Positions 11,582-57,223 of a DNA stretch of 64,000 bases are shown piece by piece. How positions within the stretch are numbered: position 1 is the stretch's first letter; each line of letters opens with the position of its first letter. The notes beneath the pieces are model-generated. The model had not been told where the DNA came from and did no database searches. It saw only the letters and a program-made list of their open reading frames with translations. The DNA is from an uncultured Eubacteriales bacterium. Its GTDB lineage: Bacteria; Bacillota; Clostridia; Christensenellales; Aristaeellaceae. The stretch covers positions 700-64,699 of the forward strand of contig OMZY01000013.1 in the NCBI GenBank assembly GCA_900315675.1. Direction: 5' to 3'. The position numbers and the translations under genes are program-made.

Positions 11582-14500
11582 TTATGCCGCAGGCGCGGCG
11601 GTTTCCGGGTCCGCATCCCATGGCCACTCCGCCATAACAAGCCCGGCAGGGAGTTCAAAGCGGCACGCCACGTTCAGGATTTTTTCAATGTGCGTCACAA
11701 AAGCAGAAAGCGTCATACGCTCCGCTTCATCCGGCGAAATTTCAAGAACATATTCATCCCATTCTCCCTTGGCTTCACCGGCAGACTTCCAGGACAGCTT
11801 ATTATACTCAATGTCTTTTCTTTCATCCCAGTCCCCGATTTCAGCATCGGCAGAAGCCGACCAGGAAAGATAATGCGTATTATCGATACGTACAGATGAA
11901 GGATCCGCATCATGGAATTGCACATGGAGCTTATTGTCAATCCAGCCGATCCCGGACAGGGAAAGTATTCCGCCCATGGATTCCTCCAGCGGCTGCGTAT
12001 AATCCAGGATTTCAGGATACATCGACACGTCCGCGGAAGATATGCTAAGCTGATCATGCGCCAGGAGACTGGTGTTTTCCGGCAGAGCCGTCACTGCCGC
12101 GTCTTTCCCGTACTTCTCCAGCAGCGGAAGCAGGTCAACCCTCTTTGCCTCCCGTGCGCCCAGGCCGCCGAATTGCAGCGTAATCTTCTGGTCAGCCTCT
12201 GCCGGATACACAAGTTCAAATTCTTTCAGGCAGGTCACTTTTTTCTGTTTCTCAGTATCATAGTCCAGTCTTATCAGACTGCTGGTGTTGTAATCCAGAG
12301 AAGGTTCCAAGGTGATCACCGGATCCGCTTTGAGCCGGCCTCCTTCCAGATCCTCAGCCGAAAAGACAACATACAGTCTCTGGTCCCTGATCAGGGCGGA
12401 AATGACCTCCATGCGAACGCCCTGCTCTATAGTGCGGAGATTCAACGGTTTCAGGTCCTTCAGCAGTCCCGGGCGCTTGTTCTCCAGGGCCGCGGTCCAG
12501 TCATTCGCCGGGAGTTCCGCTTCCTCTTCCCGATCAGCCGGTTCCGCGGCGGTCAGGTCCGGAAGCAGATCCAGCGGAACTTCCACAGTCCAGTCATCCC
12601 GGAGGGTCGCCCTCATGATCGTCCCGTATCCGTAAAGCCTCATACTGTCCACGTCTTCCGGCGTGCAGTTGAATATATATTCCTCCCTGCTGGTTTCATT
12701 CTGCAGATTGAACCAGGACACCGGACTGCCGTCCGCCTTGATTTCCTCATACGGTTTCCCGGTCACGTTGCAATTGATAAATAGGCGAAGATCGTTATAG
12801 GCAGGATCCGGAAGTTTCTCATTTTTCCTCACAAGCTGCACATGCAGCTGATCCCCGATCCAGCCAATGGCCGACAGGTATGTATTGCCGTCCAGATGAA
12901 TATCCAGGGATCCCTCATCATTGAGAACTTTCAGTCCGTCTTCCGCACGCTTTCCGTCAAACGTAAAAACAGGATAATTCTCCGGCAGGGTTATGCCCTC
13001 CTCCGTTCTGCCGTCCAGCTCCAGCAGCGGAAGCAGGTCGACTTCCCTTTCCTCCTTGAAATCCAGCTCCTCAATACCAACCCGGAGAGCATTGTTTTCA
13101 GCCAACGGCGCTTTGGACAGATCCACGCAGTAAAGCCAGGTAGTTGTGTTTTCTGTCCGGTTGATTCTCAGCCTTATGTAATGGCCGTATACAGTTCCAT
13201 CCTCCGTTTGCAGATCGTGCGGCGGATCACAGCTGTAGTCACTGTACTCCCCGCTCAGTTCCTGTGTGGTAAGGAGGAAATAAGCATTATCTCCTTTCCG
13301 GCAGCCGGAAACCACTTCCATGCGGATTCCCTGCTTTTCCATGCTCAGGCCGATGGGCGCCAGTTCATCATAGGCAACTTCCTCCACATGGGCGTCCATC
13401 GTGTCCCGGAGGAACGCCTCCTCCGTCACAAGGGTCAGTTCCTCCTCCGGAACCGCTTCGGCAGGCTGGCTGTTTTTGAAGCCTTCCGGGTTGATTTCGT
13501 ATTCATACGATCCGTTCCGGTTCATTTGCAGCCAGATCTCAACAGTATGCCGGGTATACCGGTATCCGCCGTCCTCCGCGTCCCACTGCACGGTCACATC
13601 CAGGGTGCGGACAGGATCACCCTTTGTTCCGGAAATGCCGTGAAGTTTATAGGCTCTCGGGGTACCGGCCGCCATGATCTCCTTCGCGGCCTCCGCCTCA
13701 TCAGGACGATCAGGCTCTGCATGATACGTTAATGCATTCTCCACACGGTCAGTATTGCCCAGGGCCCAGTCCCCGAAGAAAGTCCACAGGGCGGACTGAT
13801 AGGCGGAATCCGGATCGTTCTCTTTTTCAGCCGTTTCCGCGGCGTCCTTTTGCAGGAGCATGTTCATCGGGATCTCCACGCTCCAGTCGTCATACAGCGA
13901 TTCTTCATACTCTGTCAGATGCGTTTCCAGCGTCATCCGATCCACGTCATCCGGGTCACAATTGAATACATATTCACTCCACTCGTCCCAGCTGATCATA
14001 CCGACGTCCGCCTGGACATTTTCACCGTCTACAGCGCCGTAGGCTGACATCCCGTAACCTTTATTCAACACAGGTTGCTGCACGTACAGCTGCACATGCA
14101 GCTGACCGTCGATCCAGCCGATCCCCGACAGGAAAACATTCCCGAACAGGGGGATCTTCTCCTGAGACGCATCATAGCTGAGCACCTTCATATCGCCGGT
14201 TACGGGAGCCACGACATCGGATAAAGACCGCGCGTCTTCCGGCGGCGCCACGCCATCTTCCGTCCCGGCGTGTTCCTTCAGCAGCGGCACCAGATCGATG
14301 GTTGCCTCCTTCTTGGCATGGAATTTATTCATATTCAGATTGAGAGAATCCGATTCGGACGGCATGGGATCAGGCAGTTCCATCTCGTAAACCCAGACGC
14401 TGTAATTTTCAGCTTTATTGCGATACCGTTCCGAACTGGTTAAGGAGAGAAAACCTTCATTATTCGCTATATGAACCAGTTGCAGATCAAGCCCGTTATA

Positions 14501-16273
14501 CTTTCCTTCGACGTCGCGTACTATGACCAGGAAGCTTGCTTTGTCTTCCTGCAGGCAGCCGGAAACGACTTCCATCCGGATCCCCTGCTTTTCCACGCTG
14601 AGGTTGATCGGTACCGGATGATCCCGGAGTTCCGGATAGAACCGCAGCGCGTTCCGGAGGATCGCCTCCTCTGTCAGGAGAACCATCTCCCTCTCCTGCA
14701 CGGGCTCTGCGGGTTCACCCGCAGAGAAGCCTTCCGGATCAACACGGTAGGCGTCCATAGCCGGCGTGACCCTCTGCAGCCTGAGCGCAACCTCATGCCG
14801 GGTGTACGTATCGCCGCCATCTTCCCCGAGCCACTTCACCGTCACATCCAGCATACGGACCGGATCGCCGTCCCAGCCGGTAATACCGTTGATCCTGTAT
14901 CCTGCCGGACGGCGGGCATCCACAAGTTCCTTCACGGTCTGTTCCGGATCGGCCTGGCTTTCCTTCCACGTGTCCGCGCAAACATTCAGCAGGTAATCCG
15001 TATCCTTCAGCGCCCAGTCTTCAAAGAACGCCTGCAGGGTTGCCTTCCACTGAGGCTCCTCTTCAATGTTCCCGCCCGATTCCGTTTCCTCTTCCCGGGC
15101 AGCAGGCTCCTCAGCAGTCAACAGGATATCCGCCAGCGGGATCTGGACTTCCCAGGTATCCTTCACAACTTCCGTAATTTCGTGAATCCAGGCTTCCAGT
15201 CTGATTTTGTCCGCTTCGTCCGGCTGGATACCGAGTATAAACTCACTCATATCCCGATACCCGTCGCCGACAGAACTCCACATCGCCCGTTCCGTGGTAA
15301 CTTCCTTCTCCGGCTTTTCAGCATACAGCGCTGCGACGCCAATCACCATCGGAGGGATCGTTCTGGAGCCGATTGTGATCCGTTCCTGCTGCCGGTCCTG
15401 GACCTGCACATGCAGCTTGTTATCGATCCAGCCGATCCCGGTCAGATAAAAGTCTTTTTCCAGGCGCACATCCAGCGGATTGGTATAATCCAGGACTTTG
15501 GACGGGCTGTATACTATGGCGTCATCAGGCATCTTCACGCCCTCCGATGCTTTGCCATATTCCTTCAGGTAAGGAAGCAGGTCAAGTTTTATCTGCTTGT
15601 CAGCGCCCACATCTTCAACCCTGAACGAATAGAAATTATCCTCCGGATAAGCATAACCGTCGAATTCCGTATAATTCACGCATGTGATTTTATGTTCTGC
15701 CTCGTTATAGTCCAGGTAGCAGCTGTATCCGCTTCCCGGCCTGGTGCCGTAAAGGCCATCATACGTGGTCGCAAACCGGGTGACCCGGTCCCCTTCCAGA
15801 TCCTGGAGGGAGTAAACAATCCACGCTTCGTTTCCTTTTTCCAGGGCGGAAATCACTTCCATCCGGATCCCCTGCTTCTCCACGCTGAGGTTCACCGGCT
15901 TCAGTTCCCCGGCAATCCCCGGGAAATTCGTTTCAAACATTTTAAGCGCGTTCGCGGACAAAGTTTCCGTCCCGGCACCCGTTTCTTCTCCCTTGCCTTC
16001 AGACAGGGCCGTCACCAGGGGCGTTGCGGTTTCCCGCGCCCGGATGGTATCCGGCCGGATAATCAGATCCCGGGAGGCGGCCGTTACAAAGCACAACACC
16101 AGCGCCGCCGCCAGGGCAATGACAGGCTTCCGGTACCGGGATTTTTTCTTTATCGGAGCCTGCTCCTTCTGCTGCATAAGGGAAATGACCTTCCGGTCCA
16201 TTCTTTCCGCAAAGCCTTCCGGCGGCACGGGACTGTGCGCCTGAAGCGTTTTTTCAATATCATTCTTCAACAT
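11582..16273 (-). CDS. Large (1563 aa) single-TM putative anti-sigma factor with repeated DUF4179-like modules
   Basis: Overlaps 3' end of an ECF sigma; short N-terminal cytoplasmic domain, TM at about aa 50-65, four copies of NLSVEKQGIRMEV...GIGWIDxxLHVQ module and two of a second module. Confidence 0.7.
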   Translation of the reverse strand: MLKNDIEKTLQAHSPVPPEGFAERMDRKVISLMQQKEQAPIKKKSRYRKPVIALAAALVLCFVTAASRDLIIRPDTIRARETATPLVTALSEGKGEETGAGTETLSANALKMFETNFPGIAGELKPVNLSVEKQGIRMEVISALEKGNEAWIVYSLQDLEGDRVTRFATTYDGLYGTRPGSGYSCYLDYNEAEHKITCVNYTEFDGYAYPEDNFYSFRVEDVGADKQIKLDLLPYLKEYGKASEGVKMPDDAIVYSPSKVLDYTNPLDVRLEKDFYLTGIGWIDNKLHVQVQDRQQERITIGSRTIPPMVIGVAALYAEKPEKEVTTERAMWSSVGDGYRDMSEFILGIQPDEADKIRLEAWIHEITEVVKDTWEVQIPLADILLTAEEPAAREEETESGGNIEEEPQWKATLQAFFEDWALKDTDYLLNVCADTWKESQADPEQTVKELVDARRPAGYRINGITGWDGDPVRMLDVTVKWLGEDGGDTYTRHEVALRLQRVTPAMDAYRVDPEGFSAGEPAEPVQEREMVLLTEEAILRNALRFYPELRDHPVPINLSVEKQGIRMEVVSGCLQEDKASFLVIVRDVEGKYNGLDLQLVHIANNEGFLSLTSSERYRNKAENYSVWVYEMELPDPMPSESDSLNLNMNKFHAKKEATIDLVPLLKEHAGTEDGVAPPEDARSLSDVVAPVTGDMKVLSYDASQEKIPLFGNVFLSGIGWIDGQLHVQLYVQQPVLNKGYGMSAYGAVDGENVQADVGMISWDEWSEYVFNCDPDDVDRMTLETHLTEYEESLYDDWSVEIPMNMLLQKDAAETAEKENDPDSAYQSALWTFFGDWALGNTDRVENALTYHAEPDRPDEAEAAKEIMAAGTPRAYKLHGISGTKGDPVRTLDVTVQWDAEDGGYRYTRHTVEIWLQMNRNGSYEYEINPEGFKNSQPAEAVPEEELTLVTEEAFLRDTMDAHVEEVAYDELAPIGLSMEKQGIRMEVVSGCRKGDNAYFLLTTQELSGEYSDYSCDPPHDLQTEDGTVYGHYIRLRINRTENTTTWLYCVDLSKAPLAENNALRVGIEELDFKEEREVDLLPLLELDGRTEEGITLPENYPVFTFDGKRAEDGLKVLNDEGSLDIHLDGNTYLSAIGWIGDQLHVQLVRKNEKLPDPAYNDLRLFINCNVTGKPYEEIKADGSPVSWFNLQNETSREEYIFNCTPEDVDSMRLYGYGTIMRATLRDDWTVEVPLDLLPDLTAAEPADREEEAELPANDWTAALENKRPGLLKDLKPLNLRTIEQGVRMEVISALIRDQRLYVVFSAEDLEGGRLKADPVITLEPSLDYNTSSLIRLDYDTEKQKKVTCLKEFELVYPAEADQKITLQFGGLGAREAKRVDLLPLLEKYGKDAAVTALPENTSLLAHDQLSISSADVSMYPEILDYTQPLEESMGGILSLSGIGWIDNKLHVQFHDADPSSVRIDNTHYLSWSASADAEIGDWDERKDIEYNKLSWKSAGEAKGEWDEYVLEISPDEAERMTLSAFVTHIEKILNVACRFELPAGLVMAEWPWDADPETAAPAA

Positions 16274-16751
16274 CTCTCAAGCCCTCCTTTTCCAGGTTCT
16301 CCCTGAGGATTTTCAGCGCGTGACCGATGCGGGTGGAAACCGTTCCCCGGGGAATCCGGAGCACGGAAGCAATCTCCTTTTCGGTCATTCTCTCCTGCAT
16401 TTTGAGAATCAGGGGAATCCGGTATTTGTCCTCCAGGCCGCAGATATAGTCAAAAAGCAGGTCCCCGCTTTTCTCCGCCGCCCGGTTTTCCGGCACGGCA
16501 TCCAGGGGGACAAACTTTTTCCGCCTGCGCAGCTCGTTTTTCGAGCTATTGACCACACAGCGGATCAGATAGGCGCCCAGCGCGTCCGGATTCCGGATCA
16601 GGGCCAGGTGATTCCAGGCAGACTCAATAGCCGCGGACACCGCGTCCTCGGCGTCCGCCTCCGCATGCAGGAAACCCATCGCGACGCGGTACATCCTGTC
16701 CCTGTTTTCCCGGACCGTTTCCAGGAAATGCCGTTCCCGATCCATCCACAT
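16260..16751 (-). CDS. ECF RNA polymerase sigma-70 factor
   Basis: MYRVAMGFL...DAEDAVS (region 2), LEDKYRIPLIL...EIASVLRIPRGTVSTRI (region 4). Confidence 0.9.
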   Translation of the reverse strand: MWMDRERHFLETVRENRDRMYRVAMGFLHAEADAEDAVSAAIESAWNHLALIRNPDALGAYLIRCVVNSSKNELRRRKKFVPLDAVPENRAAEKSGDLLFDYICGLEDKYRIPLILKMQERMTEKEIASVLRIPRGTVSTRIGHALKILRENLEKEGLRDVEE

Positions 16752-16780
16752 ATCCTCCGAATTTGATCGATCTGTAATAC

Positions 16781-16805
16781 AGACGCACCAAAGAGGGCTT
16801 TTTGC
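16781..16805 (-). promoter_or_regulatory. Putative ECF autoregulatory promoter
   Basis: GCAAA-N15-CGTCT upstream of the sigma gene. Confidence 0.45.
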
Positions 16806-16868
16806 TTTTGGGAAATGAAAAAAATGATCCGGCTATGTATAACACAGCCGGATCAACCCGTCAATTCC

Positions 16869-19800
16869 TTATCTGGTTACTGTTTCCCCCGGCCCGGCCT
16901 CCGGACAGATTGTCCTGAGCGGGAACTTCACGCTCCAGTCTCCGTCCAGGTTCTCCTGGCCGATCGTCATGCTCGCCGTCAGCTTCAGCGTTTCCAGCTC
17001 TTCGGGCTCGCAGTCAAAGATATATTCCAGGTATTCCGTTTCCGTCCCCTCATCAAGCCAGCGCAGCGGGCTGCCCGGGGTTAGTTTTTCGGTCATGTTT
17101 TCCGCCCCGTTTTCCCTTTCGGTGAAAGTGAGGGAGAATCCGTAAAAAATATCCATGCGGATCTGCACATGCAGCTGGTCATCCACCCAGCCGATTCCGG
17201 TGAGAGACACATGATTCATCAGCGGAATATCCAGCGGCTTTGTATAATCCAGGACCCTGATCTTTTCCGGATCCAGCTGCCGGTCCATACGGTCATAGCG
17301 GTTGTCCGTGATGTTTTCCGGCGCCCGGATCCCCTCCGTGACCGTTCCGTACTGTTTCAGCAGGGCCGTCATGTCTGTCCATCCGTTCTTTTCCATGGAC
17401 AGGTTATCCAAATTGAGTGAAACGGTCCGGTCATCGGTCCCGATTTGCGTTTTGTATCTGGGATTCCAGATGAAATAGGCCTTATGCTCCTCCCTGTCCC
17501 TGTACAGGCATAGTTCAGAAAAGGACTGCATCTCTCCCACAGTATCCCTCATGCTGTAGGTGCGGTAGGAATAGCCTTCGTATGCCCCTTCCGGATCCTC
17601 CAGGGAGTATACATACCAGGCTTCATTTTCCTCTGCGTCCGCCAGTCCGGAAATCAGTTCCAGCCGGATTCCGTCTTCCCTGCAGCTCACGCCAATAGGC
17701 TTCAGCCGTTCCCTGACCCCGCCGAAGAAATTGTCCAGGCGGCCGTTTATGATCGCTTCCTTTGACAGGGAAACGGTCCGGACGGATGGATCGTATTCCG
17801 CCGGCTGCCTGTCTTCCAGGCTGTCCATGTCAATAAACGGGATAAATCCGTACTTCTTCATCCGGACGGCCATGTGTTCACAGCGGATTTCGCCGCTGCC
17901 CGGATCCAGCTGAACGGTGCAGTCATACAGCAGGCCGTCTTCATCTTCCTGTACCCCGTTTATCTGGTAGCCCAGCGGTTTCCCGCTGTCCAGCAATTCC
18001 CCGATCCGGGCCTGCAGCTGCTCCCCGCCGATCCGCTGTTCCGGAAGAAGATTATACGGCAGGTTGTCCGCGTCTTTTTCCGCCCAGTTGCAGAAGAACT
18101 CCCACAGAATAAACTGGTTATAGTCATTCCTCATGTCCGGATCCGCACCGGTTTCCTGCACAGCGGCGTCTGCGGTCTCCGCGCTGCCGGCCGGTTTCGC
18201 TTCCGGGCAGATCGCGCTCAGCGGGAACTCCAGCTTCCACGGCCCGGGCAGGGTCTTGCCGCCGTTCGCCACGTAAGACAGCTGCACAGTCACCATACGG
18301 TCCGTAAGATCAGCCTTTTCCCAATATTCGTAATGGCCCATCCGGATGGTCTGATGCTTATCCGGATCGTGATACAGTTCTCCGTCCTGGAACGATCTGT
18401 ATGCCCCGATGCTGTCCGACAGAGTATAGATCTCCCAGCTGTCATCGCCGGACTGCATCTCCAGATCCTGGACAGAATATACATACCATGCTTCATTGGG
18501 CGTAACAGCACCGGAGATCAGTTCCATCCGGATTCCGTCCTTTTCGCAGCTAACGCTGCTAACCGGGAACAGTTCCGCCGGAGGATCAAAGCCCTTCAGA
18601 TTGCGGTTAAAAATCGTTTCTTTGGAAAGATCAACAGCCTTCACAGCCGGATCGTTTTCAGCCGGTCCAAGGAGTACCAGGCTGAGCGGATCAGGCATCA
18701 GCTGCCCGTTATTGATCCGTCTGATATCCAGTTCGCACCGCTGATACTGCGGTTCCTCTCCATTGCCCGGATCCGCCAGGATGGTAAGGGTGACCTTACG
18801 CACTTTGCTGTCATCTGTCACAGAGACGCTGTTTACCTGGTAATTCAGCGGTCTGGCGAAGGACAGCTTCTCCTTCACGGCCTCCAGGATGGAAGACGCC
18901 TTATCAGTCCGTTCATACTGTGCAAAGACAGCTGCATTGCCCCAGTTCTTCTGGGCCCATTCAACCATAAAGCGATCCAGCTCATCATAGCCCCGCCCGA
19001 AACCGTCTTCTTCCGCCCCGGCGGTCACCTGATCATCCGGGATACGGATCGGATCCAGCGGAATGTCAAAGGTCCAGTCGTCTTCAATGATCCTGTCGGT
19101 AACGGTGATATTCGCGTTAAGCTCCATCTTTTCCGCGTCTTCCGGCTGACAGTTGAGCACATGTTCAGTCCACTCGGTCCATCCGTCACCGTCTCCGTCC
19201 CAGCTCAGCGGGGCATAATCATTATAGATTTCCCGGGAGGACTTCCCTGTCACGGAACAGGAAACGTTCATACTGCATGCGGAACCGCGGCCATTGCGCA
19301 GGTCAATAACGTCCCGCCCTGTGTTGTGAAGCTGCACATGCAGCCGGCCGTCGATCCAGCCGATGCCGCCCAGGCGCACATCCCTGAACAGAGGGATATC
19401 CAGCGGTTTTTTATAGTTGAGCACCTTCAGGTCCTTCGGCAGCTCAGCGTCTCTGTAGTTATTTTCCAGCCTGGGAAGCTCCACGCCTTCCTCTGTACCG
19501 CCGTGTTCCTTCAGCAGGGGCAGAAGATCGACGGTGCTGCTGTCTTCCACCCTGAAATGCTCGTAGCCAACCTGAAGACTTACGCCGGACGCCGGTAACA
19601 GGTCAGACAATTCCAGGCAGATCATCTGAGTATACTCATTCGCTTCCGGATCGGAAAACAGGTTCATGCAGCTCGTTGAAACAATGTCGTCGCTCCAGAG
19701 CGTTGACGCGTCCAGCTCATATCCGGCATATTTCCCGTCTGCATCCCGTACGTTGCACAGGAAGTATGCATATTTTCCCTTCACGCAGCCGGAAACCACA

Positions 19801-20648
19801 TCGACCCGGATCCCCTGTTTTTCAACGCTGAGGTTCAGCGGAATCAGGTCATCCACGGAGATTCCAAAGTGCATTTTCAGGTTGTGCTGCATAATGTCTT
19901 CCCTGGTCAGGAGAACCAGATCCTCTTCGGGAACAGCTTCCGCAAGCCCGCCGGTTCCGAAGCCCTCCGGATCAACGCGGTAGATATCATTCCCGCTGCT
20001 GAGACGCCGGAAGGCGATCACATGCTGTTTCCAGGTATAGGAACCGTCTTCCGCTTTCCACTGCACAGCAATGCTGGCCGTGCGAACCGGATTCTCCTGT
20101 CCGCCGGAAATTTTGATAATCTGATATCCCCGCGGTTTGGCGGACGCCGCAAGATTCTCAATTGCCTGCGCGGCATCCGGGGTGTTTGCTTTCCACTCGT
20201 CCGCACACAGGCTCAGCATCCGGTCTGTATCATTTTCAGCCCAGCCGACCATGAAGCCCCAGAAGGTGTGCTCGATCTGTCCGGCTGTTTCGTCCGCTGC
20301 GATTCCCGCGCCGTCCGCCAGTCCTTCTCCTTCGCCTTCTCCCTGCTCGGTGCCCTGGGCCAGCGCCGTCTCAATGGGCTGCACCGTATACTGGGCCTTG
20401 CCCGTCCGGATCTCGTCCGTATGCCCGGACAGGTTCAGGGTATCATTCACCGCCAGGAAACCGATGAACAGCACCAGAGCCATGGCCATGGCCAGCACCG
20501 GCCTGCGGTAGCGCAGCCAGTCCCCGGCGGTGCGCCGCTTCTTCTGCGTTTCCTTTGCCCGCAGCTCGCGGATTGTCTCCTTTGCCGCTGATTCAAAACC
20601 CGGAGCTACCGGCCCGAAGGCCTTCCGGAAATCTTCCGCTTTTTTCAT
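16869..20648 (-). CDS. Large (1259 aa) single-TM putative anti-sigma factor built from the same two modules
   Basis: ATGA overlap with ECF sigma; TM at about aa 50-68; alternating WA(E/Q)xD/N module and NLSVEKQGI...GIGWxDxxLHVQ module. Confidence 0.7.
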   Translation of the reverse strand: MKKAEDFRKAFGPVAPGFESAAKETIRELRAKETQKKRRTAGDWLRYRRPVLAMAMALVLFIGFLAVNDTLNLSGHTDEIRTGKAQYTVQPIETALAQGTEQGEGEGEGLADGAGIAADETAGQIEHTFWGFMVGWAENDTDRMLSLCADEWKANTPDAAQAIENLAASAKPRGYQIIKISGGQENPVRTASIAVQWKAEDGSYTWKQHVIAFRRLSSGNDIYRVDPEGFGTGGLAEAVPEEDLVLLTREDIMQHNLKMHFGISVDDLIPLNLSVEKQGIRVDVVSGCVKGKYAYFLCNVRDADGKYAGYELDASTLWSDDIVSTSCMNLFSDPEANEYTQMICLELSDLLPASGVSLQVGYEHFRVEDSSTVDLLPLLKEHGGTEEGVELPRLENNYRDAELPKDLKVLNYKKPLDIPLFRDVRLGGIGWIDGRLHVQLHNTGRDVIDLRNGRGSACSMNVSCSVTGKSSREIYNDYAPLSWDGDGDGWTEWTEHVLNCQPEDAEKMELNANITVTDRIIEDDWTFDIPLDPIRIPDDQVTAGAEEDGFGRGYDELDRFMVEWAQKNWGNAAVFAQYERTDKASSILEAVKEKLSFARPLNYQVNSVSVTDDSKVRKVTLTILADPGNGEEPQYQRCELDIRRINNGQLMPDPLSLVLLGPAENDPAVKAVDLSKETIFNRNLKGFDPPAELFPVSSVSCEKDGIRMELISGAVTPNEAWYVYSVQDLEMQSGDDSWEIYTLSDSIGAYRSFQDGELYHDPDKHQTIRMGHYEYWEKADLTDRMVTVQLSYVANGGKTLPGPWKLEFPLSAICPEAKPAGSAETADAAVQETGADPDMRNDYNQFILWEFFCNWAEKDADNLPYNLLPEQRIGGEQLQARIGELLDSGKPLGYQINGVQEDEDGLLYDCTVQLDPGSGEIRCEHMAVRMKKYGFIPFIDMDSLEDRQPAEYDPSVRTVSLSKEAIINGRLDNFFGGVRERLKPIGVSCREDGIRLELISGLADAEENEAWYVYSLEDPEGAYEGYSYRTYSMRDTVGEMQSFSELCLYRDREEHKAYFIWNPRYKTQIGTDDRTVSLNLDNLSMEKNGWTDMTALLKQYGTVTEGIRAPENITDNRYDRMDRQLDPEKIRVLDYTKPLDIPLMNHVSLTGIGWVDDQLHVQIRMDIFYGFSLTFTERENGAENMTEKLTPGSPLRWLDEGTETEYLEYIFDCEPEELETLKLTASMTIGQENLDGDWSVKFPLRTICPEAGPGETVTR

Positions 20649-21121
20649 GATTCAAACACATCCTCCCTGCAAATGCTCTGCAGCTGCCTGCGTCCCCGGT
20701 TCAGCCTGGACTTCACCGTGCCCTGCGGAATGCGCAGGATGGACGCAATTTCCCTGATGTCATATCCCTCAAGGTAATACAGCAGAATCGGTATTCGTTC
20801 CCGCTCCTCCAGCCGGAGCAGGCATTCCTTCAGGTCAACGGAGGGAGCTTCGGGCCCGGGCGGCGGTTCCGGAACAGACGCCGCCGGGATCATACGCTGT
20901 TTTTCCCGCTGGATATCGTGACAGACGTTCAGCAGGATGCGGACAATCCAGGTGCGGAAAAAGGAATCATTGATCAGTGAATCCTTCTTCTCCCAGGCCC
21001 GGCGCAGGGCCTCCTGGACCGCGTCCTCCCGATCCGCTTCCATGGACAGCTGGCTGCAGGTTACGCGGTACAGCGTCTGCATCATGTCCGTTACGGATGC
21101 CTCAAAGGTGTCGCCTGTCAT
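20645..21121 (-). CDS. ECF RNA polymerase sigma-70 factor
   Basis: TLYRV...DREDAVQEA...FRTWIVRILLNVCHD; LEERERIPILLYYLEGYDIREIASILRIPQGTVKSRLNRGR. Confidence 0.92.
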   Translation of the reverse strand: MTGDTFEASVTDMMQTLYRVTCSQLSMEADREDAVQEALRRAWEKKDSLINDSFFRTWIVRILLNVCHDIQREKQRMIPAASVPEPPPGPEAPSVDLKECLLRLEERERIPILLYYLEGYDIREIASILRIPQGTVKSRLNRGRRQLQSICREDVFES

Positions 21122-21152: not shown

Positions 21153-21180
21153 TTAGACGGACTGGCACAGGGATTGGTTC
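21153..21180 (-). promoter_or_regulatory. ECF-type promoter
   Basis: GAACC-N16-CGTCTAA upstream of the sigma gene; same consensus and spacing at 54832-54859. Confidence 0.7.
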
Positions 21181-21258
21181 ACGGAAGGAGTAAAAAAATG
21201 AATCATAGCCGGAAAAATCCCCTCCGGAATACCAGAGGGGACAGGAAATCCATATGGT

Positions 21259-22527
21259 TTATTTCAGGCGGTCGTTGGCGACATGCAGGACCCACTCGCC
21301 GTAGGTTTCGCCGGTGTACAGCTCAAAAGCCTGGTCAAAGCTGTAGCCCTCCGGCAGCTTGAGAATCTGCACATGGTAGTTTTCCGGCGCGCCGTCAAAG
21401 GTGATAACGCCGTCTTCGCCGCCCTGGGCCATGGTGCAGGCCGCGTCCGTGCAGAAGTTGACCGCCGCGCCGGGCACGGGATTGCCGTCCTGGTCCAGCA
21501 CATGGATCACGTAGGCCTTCTGCTCCGGCGCCTGCGCGGGTTCCTCCGCCGCTTCCTCCCAGGTGACCTCATAGTCCATGGAGCGCAGGTAGGCGGCCAC
21601 GTCCTCCAGGTTTTCCTCCTTTTCCACGAGGAAGAACTCCATCAGGTCCGGATCGCCGTCCCCGCCCACGTTGTAGTACAGGCCGTAGAGATAGGGAACG
21701 CCCTCCGGGCTCTCCAGGACCTGGTCGTAGGCAAAGACATTGCGCTGCGCGTCCAGGATGTCCGGCAGGTCCACCCGGGCCACCTTCGCGTCGTCATAGT
21801 ACATCATGTCCGCCGCGTCGTCCGCGGAAGAGATGGTGAAGCGCAGGTGCGCCGTCTGATCGTTGACCACATAAACCGGCAGGGGCTTATCCGCGCCGGA
21901 AAGGGTGAAGTGAAACTTCTTCACGTTCTCATTATCCACATACAGCGCCCGGGCAGAGACCGGATAGGCGCGGGTGGTTCCCTTCTTCGGGATCTTTGTC
22001 AGCACGGCGGTCTCTGTATAGTCGTCTCCCAGGTAGCGGTCCAGCACATTGCCGACCTCCTCCGCGGTGTTGAAGCTGCCCAGGCGCAGGAAGCCCGTAT
22101 TGCCGAAGCGGTCAATGACGACCGTGGTGGGCACGCCGTACTGGGCGACGTAGTTATACAGGGCCGAGCCCTCGTCCCGCCCCATGGGGAAGGTGAGATT
22201 GTACTCCTCCTTAAACGCCGCGATCTTTTCGTTTGTATCCCCGTCGTCATAGGACAGGGCGATGAAAGCCACCTTGTCCTTATACTGCTGATAAGCTTTT
22301 TCCAGGTCCGGGAACTCGCTCTGGCAGGGGCCGCACCAGGTAGCCCAGATGTTCAGCAGCACCGCCTCATGGTCCTTCAGGGCTTCGGACAGGGTGAAGG
22401 TGTTGCCCTCCGTATCCGCGGCCGTAAAGTCCATAAAGGGCTTGCCCAGCTCAAAGCCGGTATCCGCGGACGCCGCACCGAGGCACAGTATCAATACTGT
22501 CAGGATCAATATAATTAATTTCTTCAT
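21259..22527 (-). CDS. Exported TlpA-family thioredoxin-like protein with C-terminal extension
   Basis: Signal peptide; LNIWATWCGPCQSEFPDL, YGVPTTVVIDR; C-terminal beta-rich domain with FCTDAAC. Confidence 0.85.
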   Translation of the reverse strand: MKKLIILILTVLILCLGAASADTGFELGKPFMDFTAADTEGNTFTLSEALKDHEAVLLNIWATWCGPCQSEFPDLEKAYQQYKDKVAFIALSYDDGDTNEKIAAFKEEYNLTFPMGRDEGSALYNYVAQYGVPTTVVIDRFGNTGFLRLGSFNTAEEVGNVLDRYLGDDYTETAVLTKIPKKGTTRAYPVSARALYVDNENVKKFHFTLSGADKPLPVYVVNDQTAHLRFTISSADDAADMMYYDDAKVARVDLPDILDAQRNVFAYDQVLESPEGVPYLYGLYYNVGGDGDPDLMEFFLVEKEENLEDVAAYLRSMDYEVTWEEAAEEPAQAPEQKAYVIHVLDQDGNPVPGAAVNFCTDAACTMAQGGEDGVITFDGAPENYHVQILKLPEGYSFDQAFELYTGETYGEWVLHVANDRLK

Positions 22528-22550
22528 GTTCTTTCATCTCCTTGGGTTTT

Positions 22551-23999
22551 TTATTCCGCCGCTTCCCGGTACAGGGCCTCCAGCTTTTCAGACGATACGG
22601 AACTGACGCTGTTGTAAACCACCTCGCCCCGCCGGTTTAATACGATCGTCTGGGGCAGGGTGGCGGTTCCGCCGACGATCTCCTTCACGGGATCGCCCGC
22701 CCCGTCCGTGGCGCAGGGCATGGTCAGGCTGAGGTCCGCCAGGAAGGCCTCCGGATCCTCCACGGTCATTTCCGGGTGGATGACGATCATGGCGACGTCC
22801 TCCGGATGGGCCTTGTACAGCTCCTCAAAATACGGAAGCTCCACGACGCACGGCGTGCACCAGGTGGCCCACCGGTTGATAAACACCACTTTGCCCCGGG
22901 TGTCCGCCAGGCGGAACTCGCTGCCGTCATAGCAGGGAAGGCTGAAGTCCGCCAGCCGCTGTCCGGGTTCGTACCCGACGACCGCGGCGCTTTCCGCCGG
23001 AAGGTTTTCATGCTGCCGGACGGAAGGATCCAGGAAATTGAACCAGACCAGCACCAGGCACAGAAGCGCCAGGGCGGCGGAGCGGAAGAGGATCTTCCGG
23101 CTCCTGGCGGGTTTCTTCTCCCCGCCGGTTTCAGGGCCCTTGAGGGTAATCTTTCCCGCCTTCAGGGAGATGGCTCCCCGGCTGCAGGCCTCCGCGCACT
23201 TTCCGCACTGGATGCACTCCCGGTCGCCCACACGGCGGATATCCATTTCACAGACGCGCAGGCAGGCGCCGCAGCCGTTGCAGCGGTCCGGGTCCGTTTG
23301 CACGCCCACCAGGCTGAAGCGGTTGAACAGCCCGTAGATCGCGCCCAGGGGGCAGAGGAAGCGGCAGAAGCTGCGATAGCAGAAGACGCAGGCCAGCAGG
23401 ATGGCAACGAGGATGACCCACTTGCTGGTGAAGACCCGGCCCAGCATTTCAAACATGGACGCGTTGGCGGGGTTGGCCAGGTGGCCGGCCGCGCCCTCCA
23501 GGGTGCCCGCCGGGCAGATATACTTGCAGAAGGCCGGCAGGGGCAGGCCCCGGGCCAGGGCATAATACAGCGGAAGGGCGATCACGAACACCGCCAGGAT
23601 GACGTATTTCACCCAGGACAGCGCCCGGGTTGCCTTTCCCTTGCGGATCTTCGGCACGGGCAGCTTATGAAGCAGGTCCTGGATCAGGCCCATGGGGCAC
23701 AGCCAGCCGCAGACCGTCCGGCCCAGCATGACGCCGAAGAGCAGGATCATGCCCAGCACATACCAGCCGGCCCGGTGTCCCGCGGCAGCCAGGGCGTTCT
23801 GCAGCGCCCCCAGGGGGCAGGCCCCCGTCGCGCCGGGACAGGAATAGCAGTTCAGGCCGGGGACGCACAGCGCCTTGGCCTTTCCCTCATAGATTTTCCC
23901 TTCAATGAATCCCCGCAGGTACGCGTTGTGCAAAAGCGCCGCGTACAGCTGGACAAGCCGCCGTTTCGCCGGACGGAAGGCCTGCAGCCGGGAGACCAT
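22551..23999 (-). CDS. Membrane polyferredoxin (NapH-like 4Fe-4S binding) fused to a TlpA thioredoxin domain
   Basis: LNCYSCP, GRTVCGWLCPMG, FCRFLCPLG, CNGCGAC, CIQCGKC, then RWATWCTPC. Confidence 0.85.
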   Translation of the reverse strand: MVSRLQAFRPAKRRLVQLYAALLHNAYLRGFIEGKIYEGKAKALCVPGLNCYSCPGATGACPLGALQNALAAAGHRAGWYVLGMILLFGVMLGRTVCGWLCPMGLIQDLLHKLPVPKIRKGKATRALSWVKYVILAVFVIALPLYYALARGLPLPAFCKYICPAGTLEGAAGHLANPANASMFEMLGRVFTSKWVILVAILLACVFCYRSFCRFLCPLGAIYGLFNRFSLVGVQTDPDRCNGCGACLRVCEMDIRRVGDRECIQCGKCAEACSRGAISLKAGKITLKGPETGGEKKPARSRKILFRSAALALLCLVLVWFNFLDPSVRQHENLPAESAAVVGYEPGQRLADFSLPCYDGSEFRLADTRGKVVFINRWATWCTPCVVELPYFEELYKAHPEDVAMIVIHPEMTVEDPEAFLADLSLTMPCATDGAGDPVKEIVGGTATLPQTIVLNRRGEVVYNSVSSVSSEKLEALYREAAE

Positions 24000-24006
24000 G
24001 TTCCGC

Positions 24007-24447
24007 TTATCCAAGGCCCACACACTCCGTACAGATACTGATGGCCTTGGCCAGCACGTCCTGAACGCTGCCGTTGGCGATGCCCGCGATGATCAGCAGC
24101 GCAGCCGCGGCGAAAACGGCTATGCGGATCCAGGTTTCGTGCTTCAGTTTCCCGGAGGCCGGGGAGGCTTTTCCGCCGCCCGTTTCCCCTTTGCCCTTTG
24201 GCGGCTTCACGTCCAGGATCAGGCAGGCCGCCAGCACGCAGAGGAGCGCCAGGAACACCGGCAGGGCCGCGGTCATCACCTGACCGGCCTTTTCCGCCGT
24301 ATAGATGTTTTCCAGCGGGTTTTCCGCCCTGCGGGGCGCCCCGTCCAGGTAAATCAGGACAGCGCCCGCCGCCAGGATCACCGCCAGGGCGGTACACAGA
24401 ACCGCCAGCAGCACCGGCAGGAATTTTCCCTTACCCGTATGGCTCAC
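24007..24447 (-). CDS. CD1871A-family CXXC protein with N-terminal membrane extension
   Basis: C-terminal VLAKAISICTECVGLG; GTG start; upstream of 4Fe-4S and TlpA genes. Confidence 0.75.
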   Translation of the reverse strand: MSHTGKGKFLPVLLAVLCTALAVILAAGAVLIYLDGAPRRAENPLENIYTAEKAGQVMTAALPVFLALLCVLAACLILDVKPPKGKGETGGGKASPASGKLKHETWIRIAVFAAAALLIIAGIANGSVQDVLAKAISICTECVGLG

Positions 24448-54831: not shown

Positions 54832-54859
54832 GAACCTGTTTTCCGGTTTCCCCGTCTAA
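54832..54859 (+). promoter_or_regulatory. ECF-type promoter
   Basis: GAACC-N16-CGTCTAA, same as 21153-21180. Confidence 0.7.
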
Positions 54860-54903
54860 CGGATGGAAAGAATCCCCGACAGTATGCTCCAGGAGGAACG
54901 ACC

Positions 54904-55389
54904 TTGACCAACGAAGCCTTTACCGAAGCCGTCATCCGGATGACGCCCACCCTGTACCGGGTTGCCCGGGGCCAGCTGATCATCGAAGCGGATCAGCAGG
55001 ACGCCGTGCAGGAAGCAATCCGCCGCAGCTGGGAAAAGCGCGGCAGCCTGAAGAACGAGCGCTATCTTCAGACCTGGGTCATTCGCATTCTCCTGAACGT
55101 TTGTCATGACATCCAGCGGCACAGCAAGCGGGAGGTCCCGGTGGAAGAACTCCCGGACCGGCCGATGGCGGCAGCGGATTCCATCGACCTGCGGGACGCC
55201 CTGTTCCGGCTGACGGAAAAAGAACGCGTTTCCGTGATCCTGCATTATATCGAAGGATATGATGTGAAGCATGTCGCTGAAATCCTGAAGATTCCTGTCG
55301 GCTCCGTCAAGACAAGACTGATGCGTGCCCGCGCCCATCTGCGGGAGATCCTGAACGAGGAGGCACTGGAAGACAATGAAACGAAATGA
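54904..55389 (+). CDS. ECF RNA polymerase sigma-70 factor
   Basis: TTG start behind AGGAGG; TLYRV...DAVQEA...TWVIRILLNVCHD; YIEGYDVKHVAEILKIPVGSVKTRL. Confidence 0.9.
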   Translation: MTNEAFTEAVIRMTPTLYRVARGQLIIEADQQDAVQEAIRRSWEKRGSLKNERYLQTWVIRILLNVCHDIQRHSKREVPVEELPDRPMAAADSIDLRDALFRLTEKERVSVILHYIEGYDVKHVAEILKIPVGSVKTRLMRARAHLREILNEEALEDNETK

Positions 55390-57223
55390 AGATTTCAGAA
55401 ATGCCCTGGGGCAACCGGATGAATACTTCCGGCAGTCCGTCATTGATACACTGGACCAGCTGAATATGCAGGCGGAAAAGGAAAAGCGCCCGCAGAGAAG
55501 GTTTCCCGCCCGGCTCGTGTGCACTTTCGCCGCCCTGGCGCTGGCAATCACCGGCCTGTTCCTGTCCGGAGTGCACATTCCCGGCATTCCGACCGAAAGC
55601 TCTGTGGACGCAATCCGGCCGACGCCCACCGTTGCCACGCAGCTGACCGCCGACCAGCCGTCAGCGGCCGCCGCAGACCAGGCCGTATCCCGGATTCCTT
55701 TTGTGGAAACAGAGCTGGCTACCCTGACCATCCGCAACCCAAAGATCATCGGCTCCCATATTAAACTGCAGGTTGAAGTGATGCCCAAAGCCGAGAAGAC
55801 TCTGGCCCTGAACTGGAGTATTCATCCTTATACCGACCGTGTGACAAAAATCGGAAAAACCCCGGATTACGCGGGGCAGTCCATCATGCAATGGGCCAAC
55901 GATCATGGCTATACGCTTCTCCGCGTCGTCTTTGGCAATGCGTTTGAACCTGAGATTCCCGGAGTTTTACCCGACATTGATCCTCCAAAGACAGGAACTA
56001 TCCAAGCGCCCGCTTTTGATTCCATTTTCATTGATCAGTCAACCTATGAAGACAGCGGCGCTACGGTTATCACAGTCTCCGGTGATACGCTTCCGGACAC
56101 CATGGATTACATGCTTGGTTTTGTCCTGCAGACCTGGGACAATACAAAAACAGATTATCGCGATTATGAGAACGCCTTCCATTCGGACGGCCAGATCTTC
56201 GGGAATATTCCTTTCAGGACTGAAGCAGAGATCATCGAGACCGTCGCCCTGTACACCTCCCATCCCCATCCGTTCAAAAGCGATTCAGATCTTGAGTACA
56301 CTGCCGCATTCTATAAAACCACCTACGGTGAATATATGGAGGTTCGCACAAATGACCTTTCCCTCACCGACACATTTAAATCGTACAACCTGTATCTGAT
56401 GAGCCAGCTTTCCAGCCACCAGTTCCTCGTTCTTTATGATTTCTGGGCTACGAGGGTTTATCCCGATTCAGCGAACATCGATTCGCCTCTGGAGAGCGAA
56501 TGCTATCAGACGGAAGACGGCTGGCTCGTCGTCAGATGTCCCTGTGTGATATCCGAACTTCCGGATATGCTCGATCTGGATGTTGGAACAAGTCACTGCA
56601 ACCTCATAAAGGTTGAATCCGGCTGGAACAACTGGGGCGAAGAAATTGACCGGAGCACAGTAATCAGCACGGGCCCGGAAAACAACACATTGGAAACGGA
56701 ACTGGCCGACCTGAAGCTTCTGCAGGCTGAAACCGATGACCAGGGTCTCCTCTTCTCCTTTGCGGTTTCTCCCCGGCAGGATCACATCCTGGTAATCGGT
56801 ACAGATATCAATCCGGAAATAAATTCACCGACAAAAATCGGCCTGACTCCTGACCGCGCCGGCCAGACAATCGCCGAATGGGCTTTGAAACACGGCTATG
56901 ACCAGGTTATGGCCATCGATCTCTTCTCCCCGTCTGTCGAAGAATGCCCCACCCGGGACGCAAAATGCCGTACCGCGATCAGGGCCGCCGGGCAGGACGG
57001 TTCCGCCATCCTGGATGTACGCGGCAGCATTCTGGCCGATAAAGCGCTGTATGATCTGTGCTGCACCATTTCAGTCAGTAACTTGGCCGGCCATTATACA
57101 TACACCGATGACGGTGCAGGCGGTTCAGGCACGACTTTCACCGCAACATATACCCAGGATGCGCATACTTTCCTGAAGGTTTCCGTTCCCGGCGGAGAGG
57201 AAACGCCTGTCACCCGTAACTGA
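55376..57223 (+). CDS. Single-TM putative anti-sigma factor (615 aa) with a duplicated extracellular domain
   Basis: N-terminus MKRNEDFRNALG resembles MKKAEDFRKAFG of 16869-20648; TM; two copies of ETELA.L...TKIG.TPD.AGQ.I..WA..HGY. Confidence 0.7.
   Translation: MKRNEDFRNALGQPDEYFRQSVIDTLDQLNMQAEKEKRPQRRFPARLVCTFAALALAITGLFLSGVHIPGIPTESSVDAIRPTPTVATQLTADQPSAAAADQAVSRIPFVETELATLTIRNPKIIGSHIKLQVEVMPKAEKTLALNWSIHPYTDRVTKIGKTPDYAGQSIMQWANDHGYTLLRVVFGNAFEPEIPGVLPDIDPPKTGTIQAPAFDSIFIDQSTYEDSGATVITVSGDTLPDTMDYMLGFVLQTWDNTKTDYRDYENAFHSDGQIFGNIPFRTEAEIIETVALYTSHPHPFKSDSDLEYTAAFYKTTYGEYMEVRTNDLSLTDTFKSYNLYLMSQLSSHQFLVLYDFWATRVYPDSANIDSPLESECYQTEDGWLVVRCPCVISELPDMLDLDVGTSHCNLIKVESGWNNWGEEIDRSTVISTGPENNTLETELADLKLLQAETDDQGLLFSFAVSPRQDHILVIGTDINPEINSPTKIGLTPDRAGQTIAEWALKHGYDQVMAIDLFSPSVEECPTRDAKCRTAIRAAGQDGSAILDVRGSILADKALYDLCCTISVSNLAGHYTYTDDGAGGSGTTFTATYTQDAHTFLKVSVPGGEETPVTRN

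Follow-up and report, generated by a model that had tools for sequence, protein, structure and literature searches.

Two neighbouring genes in a 64,000-nucleotide stretch of contig OMZY01000013.1 (hereafter the window, meaning the whole stretch analysed), from an uncultured Eubacteriales bacterium of the family Aristaeellaceae, encode giant proteins that we propose to be membrane anti-sigma factors of the DUF4179 class with an iterated, recombining ectodomain. We put the probability of this reading at roughly 0.7. P1 (11582..16273, (-)) is a single-pass membrane protein of 1563 amino acids (aa), and P2 (16869..20648, (-)) is one of 1259 aa. After a single transmembrane (TM) helix, each consists of a chain of two kinds of module, A and B, in the order TM-A-B-A-B-A-A in P1 and TM-B-A-B-A'-B-A in P2, as established from the list of open reading frames (ORFs), fragment BLAST, profile hidden Markov models (HMMs) and hydropathy. 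The argument draws on the genetic context of the two genes, on the predicted fold of module A and on the mosaic structure of their alleles.

Both genes overlap a gene for an extracytoplasmic function (ECF) sigma factor and lie directly 3' of it, as a single-pass anti-sigma partner would. The sigma gene of the P1 operon (16260..16751, (-); 163 aa) overlaps the start of P1 by 14 nt at its 3' end, and the stop of the sigma gene of the P2 operon (20645..21121, (-); 158 aa) overlaps the start of P2 by 4 nt. The Pfam domains Sigma70_r2 and Sigma70_r4_2 match the former at 2e-11 and 1.8e-8 and the latter at 3.7e-8 and 1.2e-16; with TIGR02937 (sigma70-ECF, cut-off 42.9) the two score 65 and 74 bits, respectively. 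Neither reached an equivalog cut-off in the NCBIfam scan. Having regions 2 and 4 only, in 163 and 158 aa, both are of the ECF type (sigma-70 group 4).

In P1 and P2 alike, a single hydrophobic segment at about aa 49-70 is preceded by a cluster of Lys and Arg. The short cytoplasmic N-terminus and the TM helix together take up aa 1-72, at 16058..16273 (-) in P1 (hydropathy) and 20433..20648 (-) in P2, where hydropathy and the Lys/Arg cluster place them and the N-terminus is the putative sigma-binding part; the two N-termini are 35-37% identical. P1 as a whole is strongly acidic, with 289 Asp and Glu against 152 Lys and Arg. DUF4179 (PF13786) matches P1 with 24.0 bits over aa 42-157, below the gathering score of 30.1, and the match spans the TM region and the first strands of module A1. 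Precomputed PF13786 matches are present in several relatives (P0008, P0010-13, P0017-18 and others), and through these the family as a whole connects to DUF4179, even though P1 and P2 formally fall short of the gathering score.

The association with sigma genes extends to the other members in the same genome. The A profile found four further complete proteins besides P1 and P2, and all six complete A-bearing ORFs lie directly 3' of an ECF sigma ORF, with frames that overlap or abut. Three of the four have an ordinary length, 364-405 aa counted from the likely start, contain a single A module and score 16-27 bits with DUF4179, again sub-threshold. The original prediction, made from the sequence alone, had stated that ECF sigmas of Firmicutes often pair with DUF4179 proteins bearing one such domain, and ordinary single-module partners of this type do adjoin ECF sigmas here. 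The fourth protein, an 896-aa open frame, looks frameshifted. It is encoded 3' of an ECF sigma gene (both in C45:70706-74136) and contains, in order, an A, about 140 aa of unassigned sequence, a B, a weak B and the start of an A, the remainder of which is found in another frame (C45:73813, 105 aa). It is probably a frameshifted or pseudogenised multi-module paralog. The paralogs also share a juxtamembrane motif, (T/Y)(A/V)xP(L/I/M)xTAL(S/A)xGxGE, just outside the TM helix and followed by a Gly/Glu-rich stretch (window positions 16000-16060 and 20370-20430 (-), and the C45 paralog). Judged by sequence, it is a candidate site-1 cleavage or protection region.

Because whole-protein self-BLAST masked the internal repeats, these were found by searching 120-aa pieces against both proteins. 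Every piece past about residue 110 gave three to six further matches in P1 and P2 (E 1e-5 to 1e-36). Profile HMMs built from the aligned copies of A and B in the two proteins recovered four full A modules (358-408 bits) and two B modules in P1, and two full A modules, one split half-copy and three B modules in P2, the B domains of both scoring 181-216 bits. All modules are on the reverse strand. In P1 they are A1 (aa 118-402, 15068..15922, 374 bits), B1 (aa 403-548, 14630..15067, 214 bits), A2 (aa 546-822, 13808..14638, from the HMM), B2 (aa 820-966, 13376..13816, 209 bits), A3 (aa 965-1262, 12488..13381, 408 bits) and A4 (aa 1266-1563, 11585..12478, 358 bits); the cores of A1 (aa 161-360) and A2 (aa 601-800) are replaced in other alleles. 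In P2 they are B1 (aa 118-262, 19863..20297, 216 bits), A1 (aa 262-552, 18993..19865, 402 bits), B2 (aa 550-688, 18585..19001, 181 bits), the half-module A' (aa 687-842, 18123..18590), B3 (aa 840-976, 17721..18131, 186 bits) and A3 (aa 975-1259, 16872..17726, 377 bits). A' comprises the first beta-sandwich and the last ~40 residues of an A module, matching positions 4-106 of the A HMM with 124 bits and positions 253-292 with 17 bits, and it is retained in the alleles P0026-28, P0030 and P0036.

The modules are joined by linkers rich in Glu, Pro and Ala, and the outer part of the proteins is very acidic. The lengths of 1563 and 1259 aa given in the original prediction agree exactly with the ORF coordinates, both of its module orders were right by fragment BLAST and HMMs, and its module starts lie within ~20 nt of our own boundaries. 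It had also described the copies as well diverged, and indeed A copies are 29-32% and B copies 23-41% identical to the first copy of their own alignment. At the DNA level, the repeats in the locus are short and 60-83% identical. Such divergence, together with the shortness of the DNA repeats, indicates that the module duplications are old.

Module A is ~285 aa long. For structure prediction with AlphaFold2, the alignments of both modules were enriched with copies cut from the 61 relatives described below. The model of A, made from P2 A1, is confident (predicted local distance difference test, pLDDT, 91.2; predicted template modelling score, pTM, 0.85) and shows two beta-sandwiches (strands within residues 8-113 and 157-269) with a short helix and a loop between them. 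In a Foldseek search of the PDB, 3FBQ was the sole match below E 1e-3 (E 1.5e-5, probability 1.0, 325 aligned columns); the next were generic pairs of immunoglobulin (Ig) domains or antigen-binding fragments (Fab), at E 0.022 and above. Searches of Pfam, NCBIfam and PDB sequences gave nothing significant for module A, the sub-threshold DUF4179 match in P1 being the exception. 3FBQ comes from Bacillus anthracis and is the extracellular domain of the anti-sigma factor BAS1627, which belongs to DUF4179 and to the ECF30 group and has no reported function (PMC6066255). Given the fold match and the identity of 3FBQ, the predicted model equates module A with the entire ectodomain of an ordinary DUF4179-class anti-sigma factor, here put to use as a repeat unit; the assignment to the BAS1627 type is made at the level of fold only. 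The proposal that P1 and P2 are anti-sigma-like thus gains support from the sigma-gene overlaps of 14 and 4 nt, the sub-threshold DUF4179 match in P1, the PF13786 matches in relatives and the likeness of module A to 3FBQ.

Module B is shorter, ~140 aa, and its model (from P1 B1; pLDDT 94.8, pTM 0.88) has four helices (residues 6-51) followed by a curved sheet of four long strands (54-109). The best 50 Foldseek matches in the PDB were all NTF2-like, with a best E of 1.5e-3, a TM-score (template modelling) of 0.5-0.6 and 8-16% identity. They are headed by 2I9W/2JQ5 (SEC-C/YchJ type), ketosteroid isomerases and limonene epoxide hydrolases, and they include the CaMKII hub, SnoaL-like cyclases and the N-terminal domain of PBP5. 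No significant Pfam match was obtained for any of the five B copies in the window (best E 0.096, to unrelated families), and no match was found in NCBIfam or among PDB sequences; distant B-bearing relatives give weak, mostly sub-threshold Pfam matches to MecA_N, SnoaL_2, DUF4440 and TcpC. Taken together, the Foldseek matches, these weak matches to NTF2 families and the absence of a significant Pfam match make B, in its predicted structure, an NTF2-like cone outside any named family, and thus a new sequence family of NTF2-like fold. The earlier suggestion that B may be an unnamed NTF2-like domain therefore stands, and the modelling and Foldseek comparison that had been proposed as a check on each module led to 3FBQ for A and to NTF2-like proteins for B.

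The same genome encodes module B in two further proteins, at C48:640994-641317 (in a 581-aa ORF) and at C23:71780-72570 (a 263-aa ORF, ~6.4 kb past the end of the window). The C48 protein is a conserved membrane protein with a long N-terminus rich in Gln, Gly, Tyr and Pro, and the C23 protein is small, with an N-terminus resembling a signal peptide. Both end in the same Cys motif, YH(L/R)DPNCK...C(E/H)ICGAP. Since the best structural relatives of B are NTF2 proteins with a SEC-C motif (YchJ type), a zinc-binding tail beside the NTF2 cone may be the ancestral arrangement.

A full-length search with P1 gave 61 clusters of relatives, 868-2525 aa long and almost all from rumen or gut metagenomes; one is a protein of Aristaeella lactis, annotated as a leucine-rich repeat (LRR) protein only. 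The original prediction had described the giants as assembled combinatorially by domain shuffling and had proposed an HMM survey of architectures. When the relatives were scanned with the A and B HMMs, 43 different architectures emerged among the 61, with two to nine modules, from A-B up to A-A-A-B-A-B-A-A-A. About one third end in a C-terminal region of ~260-470 aa with LRR_5 or LRR_8 matches. The order of modules is far from free: across the relatives B is followed by A in 87 instances, by another B in seven and by the tail in three, and the final module is almost always an A. A tree built from 80 A modules groups most of those that follow a B in one supported clade and places those that follow the TM region or another A elsewhere. 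This amounts to 16 changes of context on the tree, against a mean of 34.5 when contexts are shuffled, and none of 200 shuffles was as low. As B nearly always stands before one subtype of A, the building units are 'A' and 'B-A'. Well-supported sister modules are nevertheless found in different contexts, such as module 2 of P0041 (after B) and module 1 of P0047 (after the TM helix). By the sequence record, these two units have been rearranged repeatedly, and the number of architectures, the repeated changes of context and the mosaic alleles described next all speak for the shuffling that had been proposed.

Independent assemblies contain the same locus, comprising two redoxin genes, a 158-aa sigma, a P2-type protein, a 161-aa sigma and a P1-type protein, with giants of other lengths: a P2-type allele of 1913 aa with an LRR tail against 1259 aa in the window, and P1-type alleles of 1590 or 1160 aa against 1563 aa. 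Compared module by module, P0002 is 73% identical to P1 in A1, 96% in B1, 58% in A2, 97% in B2, 95% in A3 and 95% in A4. P0005 has two unrelated A modules (29-34% identical) where P1 has A1, and P0008 lacks B2-A3. Identity profiles in 40-residue windows place the boundaries of these differences. P1 and P0002 are 95-100% identical up to residue 160, fall to 55-72% over residues 161-360, return to 92-98%, fall again to 40-68% over residues 601-800 and return to 85-100%. Residues 1-160 of P1 are 95-100% identical in P0001, P0002, P0003 and P0008; in P0005 and P0007, identity drops to 45-62% from about residue 81. P2 and P0026 are 95-100% identical over residues 1-800, with all but four windows at 100%, and 28-60% identical thereafter, the break coinciding with the end of half-module A'. 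Across the alleles, identity is 92-100% in the B modules, in some A modules and in the part next to the membrane, and 28-70% in the replaced blocks; in the comparison of P1 alleles, B modules keep 92-98% conservation and two A cores vary.

Synonymous divergence is raised along with protein divergence: dS in the replaced blocks is mostly 0.35-2.3 (lower in a few edge windows) against at most 0.27 in the flanks, which argues that homologous recombination with old, divergent alleles brought these blocks in. Together these patterns point to cassette exchange by recombination, involving whole A cores or the distal half of the protein. Local positive selection acting within a clonal lineage as the sole cause of the variable blocks was rejected, dS being raised there too, and long identical DNA repeats were discarded as drivers of recombination within the gene, where only the short repeats of 60-83% identity exist. 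As no long identical repeats occur within the gene, the mosaicism lies between alleles. Since the B modules are conserved while the A cores vary, the pattern, if anything, favours A over B as the determinant of specificity. Contigs from two gut metatranscriptome runs join position 15089 to 15987, so that A1 of P1 is skipped or replaced. In the same contig sets, position 17606 is joined to 18511 with 34 other letters in between; these are equivalent places in A' and A3 of P2, and the flanking match at this joint is only 21 nt. Both joints may represent further structural alleles in the community.

Among 1.84 billion representative sequences, the B profile matches 248 proteins at E <=1e-3. Of the 36 other genomes in the window's genus, 35 have it; none of 24 other families of the order does, and among the 300 genomes scored at class level its sole match is the window's own. 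On this sampling, module B is restricted to one genus. Most genomes of the genus have B once, in a conserved membrane protein of ~520-650 aa of the C48 type, from which the giants probably recruited it. The A family is present in 11 of the 37 genomes of the genus (own included) and multi-module giants in about seven, which confines the giant family, as far as these genomes tell, to part of one rumen genus of Christensenellales. Related loci come from rumen and omasum metagenome-assembled genomes of Christensenellales or Clostridia. In gut metatranscriptomes (bovine, sheep and others), low-depth contigs with 95-99% identity span much of both operons, and independent sources, among them an NCBI genome, contain a protein of equal length that is 96% identical.

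The locus is likely to consist of two independent two-gene operons, each encoding an ECF sigma and a membrane anti-sigma of the DUF4179 class. An ECF-type promoter-like motif, GAACC-N16-CGTCTAA, can be read 5' of the P2-operon sigma gene (21153..21180, (-)) and is identical in the syntenic metagenome locus L003. This motif has the typical form of an ECF promoter. Between P2 and the next sigma gene lies a hairpin resembling an intrinsic terminator (16825..16855, (-); a 14 bp stem and a run of seven T), conserved in L001 and L003. A second hairpin at ~21213-21240, spotted by eye, stands ahead of the upstream operon, and the intergenic regions of the operons are conserved in syntenic metagenome contigs. 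Two genes of the thioredoxin/redoxin fold (21259-24023, (-)), also syntenic in L003, lie immediately upstream of the sigma operons and encode a 422-aa lipoprotein-like protein and a 490-aa membrane protein with 4Fe-4S motifs.

Elsewhere in the window there is a third sigma/anti-sigma-like pair (54832-57223, (+)). It begins with a GAACC-N16-CGTCTAA motif at 54832-54859, followed by an ECF sigma gene that ends at 55389 and whose product resembles the P2-operon sigma (20645-21121; phmmer E 6.6e-50). This gene overlaps one for a 615-aa protein with a single TM helix (55376-57223), whose N-terminus is similar to the one of P2, at 34% identity over 38 aa. Its outer part contains no A or B module and has no Pfam match, and it shows an internal repeat, IGKTPDYAGQSIMQWANDHGY and IGLTPDRAGQTIAEWALKHGY.

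Taking RsiV, the lysozyme-binding anti-sigma of Bacillus subtilis, as an analogy, we infer the following sequence of activation. The N-terminus would hold the cognate sigma at the membrane until an outside signal engages the variable A modules or, where one exists, the distal LRR. The signal would expose the conserved juxtamembrane region to a cut by a site-1 protease nearby, an M50 site-2 protease (one is encoded in the genome) would then cut within the membrane, and the released sigma would drive its own GAACC-N16-CGTCTAA promoter and other targets. The long chain could allow multivalent binding to a polymeric or particulate ligand, or could carry the distal modules beyond the wall. With B conserved and the A cores variable, specific contacts would fall to the A modules or the LRR head, and B would be a spacer or an interaction scaffold. 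A near-invariant stem (residues 1-160 of P1 in four of six alleles, and residues 1-800 of P2 in P0026) fits this mechanism.

Several observations weigh against the anti-sigma reading. The likeness of module A to 3FBQ is structural only, with a TM-score of 0.28 and 10% identity; the low score reflects two halves that are hinged against each other, and no sequence-profile match links the A HMMs to 3FBQ among PDB sequences. P2 has no DUF4179 match, that of P1 is below the gathering score, and the N-terminus of ~45 aa matches no anti-sigma domain in Pfam, so that its assignment to a known anti-sigma domain was dropped. M50 proteases are universal, and the presence of one therefore says little. The original prediction had named a GAACC/CGTCTAA promoter as the basis of a reporter; this stands for the P2-operon sigma, and for the third sigma of the window, and not for the P1-operon sigma, where the upstream region has a CGTCTG element only and no clear -35. 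A loose form of the promoter pattern gives 22 matches genome-wide (3.6 Mb), and GAACC-N16-CGTCTAA precedes sigma-like genes at just two places in the genome, the P2-operon sigma and the third sigma, which left no wider regulon to be drawn from the promoter search. The transcript contigs are of low depth, and carry-over of DNA could account for them. Finally, metagenome assembly, which can mis-join repeats, is the source of most alleles, although P0002 was assembled identically in two runs, which counters mis-assembly.

Other explanations have to be weighed against this one. P1 and P2 could be surface adhesins or structural fibres of the envelope, anchored by the N-terminal TM helix and comparable to BspA-like LRR proteins or Ig-repeat adhesins, with the neighbouring sigma genes a secondary add-on for contact signalling or without meaning. 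We consider this unlikely, despite the long chain of Ig-like beta-sandwiches with acidic linkers, the many relatives that end in LRR_5/LRR_8 regions (the one named relative being annotated as an LRR protein only) and a strain-level hypervariability typical of exposed surface proteins. All six complete A proteins follow an ECF sigma gene, including the forms of 364-405 aa, which are too short for fibres; conservation is highest across the membrane-proximal 160 residues in four of six P1 alleles; and no sortase or cell-wall-anchoring motif is present, which makes the TM helix the sole anchor. Adhesion and signalling are compatible, and this explanation, like the next, partly overlaps with the anti-sigma reading.

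The variable modules might instead be targets, that is, phage receptors or decoys or antigens of host immunity, their mosaicism a means of escape from phage or antibody and the sigma a reporter of damage or loss. No direct phage link exists and no diversity-generating retroelement or invertase lies nearby, and we regard this as more doubtful still. It would account for the exchange of ancient divergent blocks between near-identical genes (with dN/dS of ~0.4-1.5 in the A1 block), for the concentration of variation in particular outer modules and for the patchy occurrence within the genus, where A is found in 11 of 37 genomes; yet certain distal modules, A3 and A4 of P1, show 87-96% conservation, and the raised dS reflects recombination between old alleles and does not identify the selective agent. 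As for the idea that tandem duplication in decaying or non-functional genes left the repeats behind as neutral relics, or that they are artefacts of assembly, the frameshifted look of C45 and the proneness of repeated genes to mis-assembly are what speak for it, and it seems to us very improbable. The frames of 1563 and 1259 codons are intact, copies at 23-41% identity still keep the same conserved core residues, and AlphaFold2 gives confident folds for both modules; with the 96% identical protein of the same length in independent sources and the existence of transcript contigs, these features contradict neutral decay.

Returning to the anti-sigma reading, one could extend it and speculate that the giants form a strain-variable repertoire of receptors, in which a conserved stem carries exchangeable cassettes of the BAS1627 type, sometimes with an LRR head, swapped by homologous recombination. 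The stem would comprise the sigma-binding N-terminus, the TM helix, the juxtamembrane region and the NTF2-like spacers. We offer this extension tentatively, and on balance would not yet favour it. If it is true, each strain couples different external cues, such as plant polymers, phage, microbes or host molecules, to its own ECF sigmas, in a modular recombining sensory system of a kind not previously described for anti-sigma factors.

Pairs of ECF sigma and anti-sigma factors are among the most common signalling devices of bacteria. To our knowledge, RsiV is the only member of the DUF4179 class with a known ligand. Here, the BAS1627-type ectodomain acts as a transferable unit, strung together up to seven times and combined with an NTF2-like module and LRR heads, and the exchange of ectodomain cassettes between strains supplies a natural series of variants with which to ask what the domain recognises. 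The rumen genus of Christensenellales concerned includes Aristaeella, which has cultured isolates; with transcripts in rumen samples, this makes the question of recognition directly testable. A conserved stem with variable cassettes may also serve as a scaffold for engineered sensors. The locus thus offers a tractable way into an uncharacterised sensor domain from an abundant rumen lineage.

Module B shares the alpha+beta cone of NTF2-like domains of the envelope (MecA_N of PBP2a/PBP5, TcpC, SnoaL-like and YchJ-type SEC-C proteins) and differs from them in having no significant match to a Pfam family, with a TM-score of 0.5-0.6 and 8-16% identity. The literature searched (DUF4179, 3FBQ/BAS1627, and NTF2-like with anti-sigma) contains no account of an anti-sigma ectodomain that uses this fold as a repeated spacer, of iterated BAS1627-type ectodomains or of cassette mosaicism in anti-sigma genes; nor did it yield any multi-module forms, a prior description of which would have counted against the original prediction. 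The RsgI anti-sigmaI factors of Clostridium thermocellum come in paralogous pairs with their sigmas and combine modular extracellular sensors with regulated intramembrane proteolysis (PMC10328401, PMC6852018, PMC10556640). Like P1 and P2, they form multiple sigma/anti-sigma pairs, in a clostridial organism that degrades plant fibre. In contrast, their partner is a sigmaI and not an ECF sigma, they have one or two sensor modules and not chains of 6-9, and no RsgI-type, SEAL or carbohydrate-binding Pfam family matches P1 or P2. These biomass sensors are the nearest analogue in function, and the resemblance is one of functional analogy only.

That ECF sigma factors pair with DUF4179 anti-sigma factors is already known (PMC6066255, PMC7826278). 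RsiV, the anti-sigma of sigmaV in B. subtilis, belongs to this class and is its only member with a known mechanism: it has one TM helix, its ectodomain binds lysozyme directly, and signal peptidase cuts site 1 in the DUF4179 region before the site-2 protease acts (PMC6066255). Its ectodomain is of a different fold family, with no RsiV-type Pfam match in P1, P2 or their modules, and the window's sigmas score 66-76 bits with the SigV equivalog NF053879, the cut-off of which is 190. The closest parallel is with the DUF4179 anti-sigmas of the ECF30 group, such as BAS1627. P1 and P2 resemble these in the gene position next to a sigma, the short cytoplasmic N-terminus, the single TM helix, the DUF4179-type juxtamembrane region (sub-threshold in P1 and passing in several relatives) and the two-beta-sandwich ectodomain unit that leads Foldseek to 3FBQ (PMC6066255, PMC7826278). 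Whereas ordinary DUF4179 anti-sigmas have 300-500 aa and one ectodomain, the unit is repeated here three to four times, and up to seven times in relatives, and is interspersed with NTF2-like modules in proteins of 1259-2525 aa.

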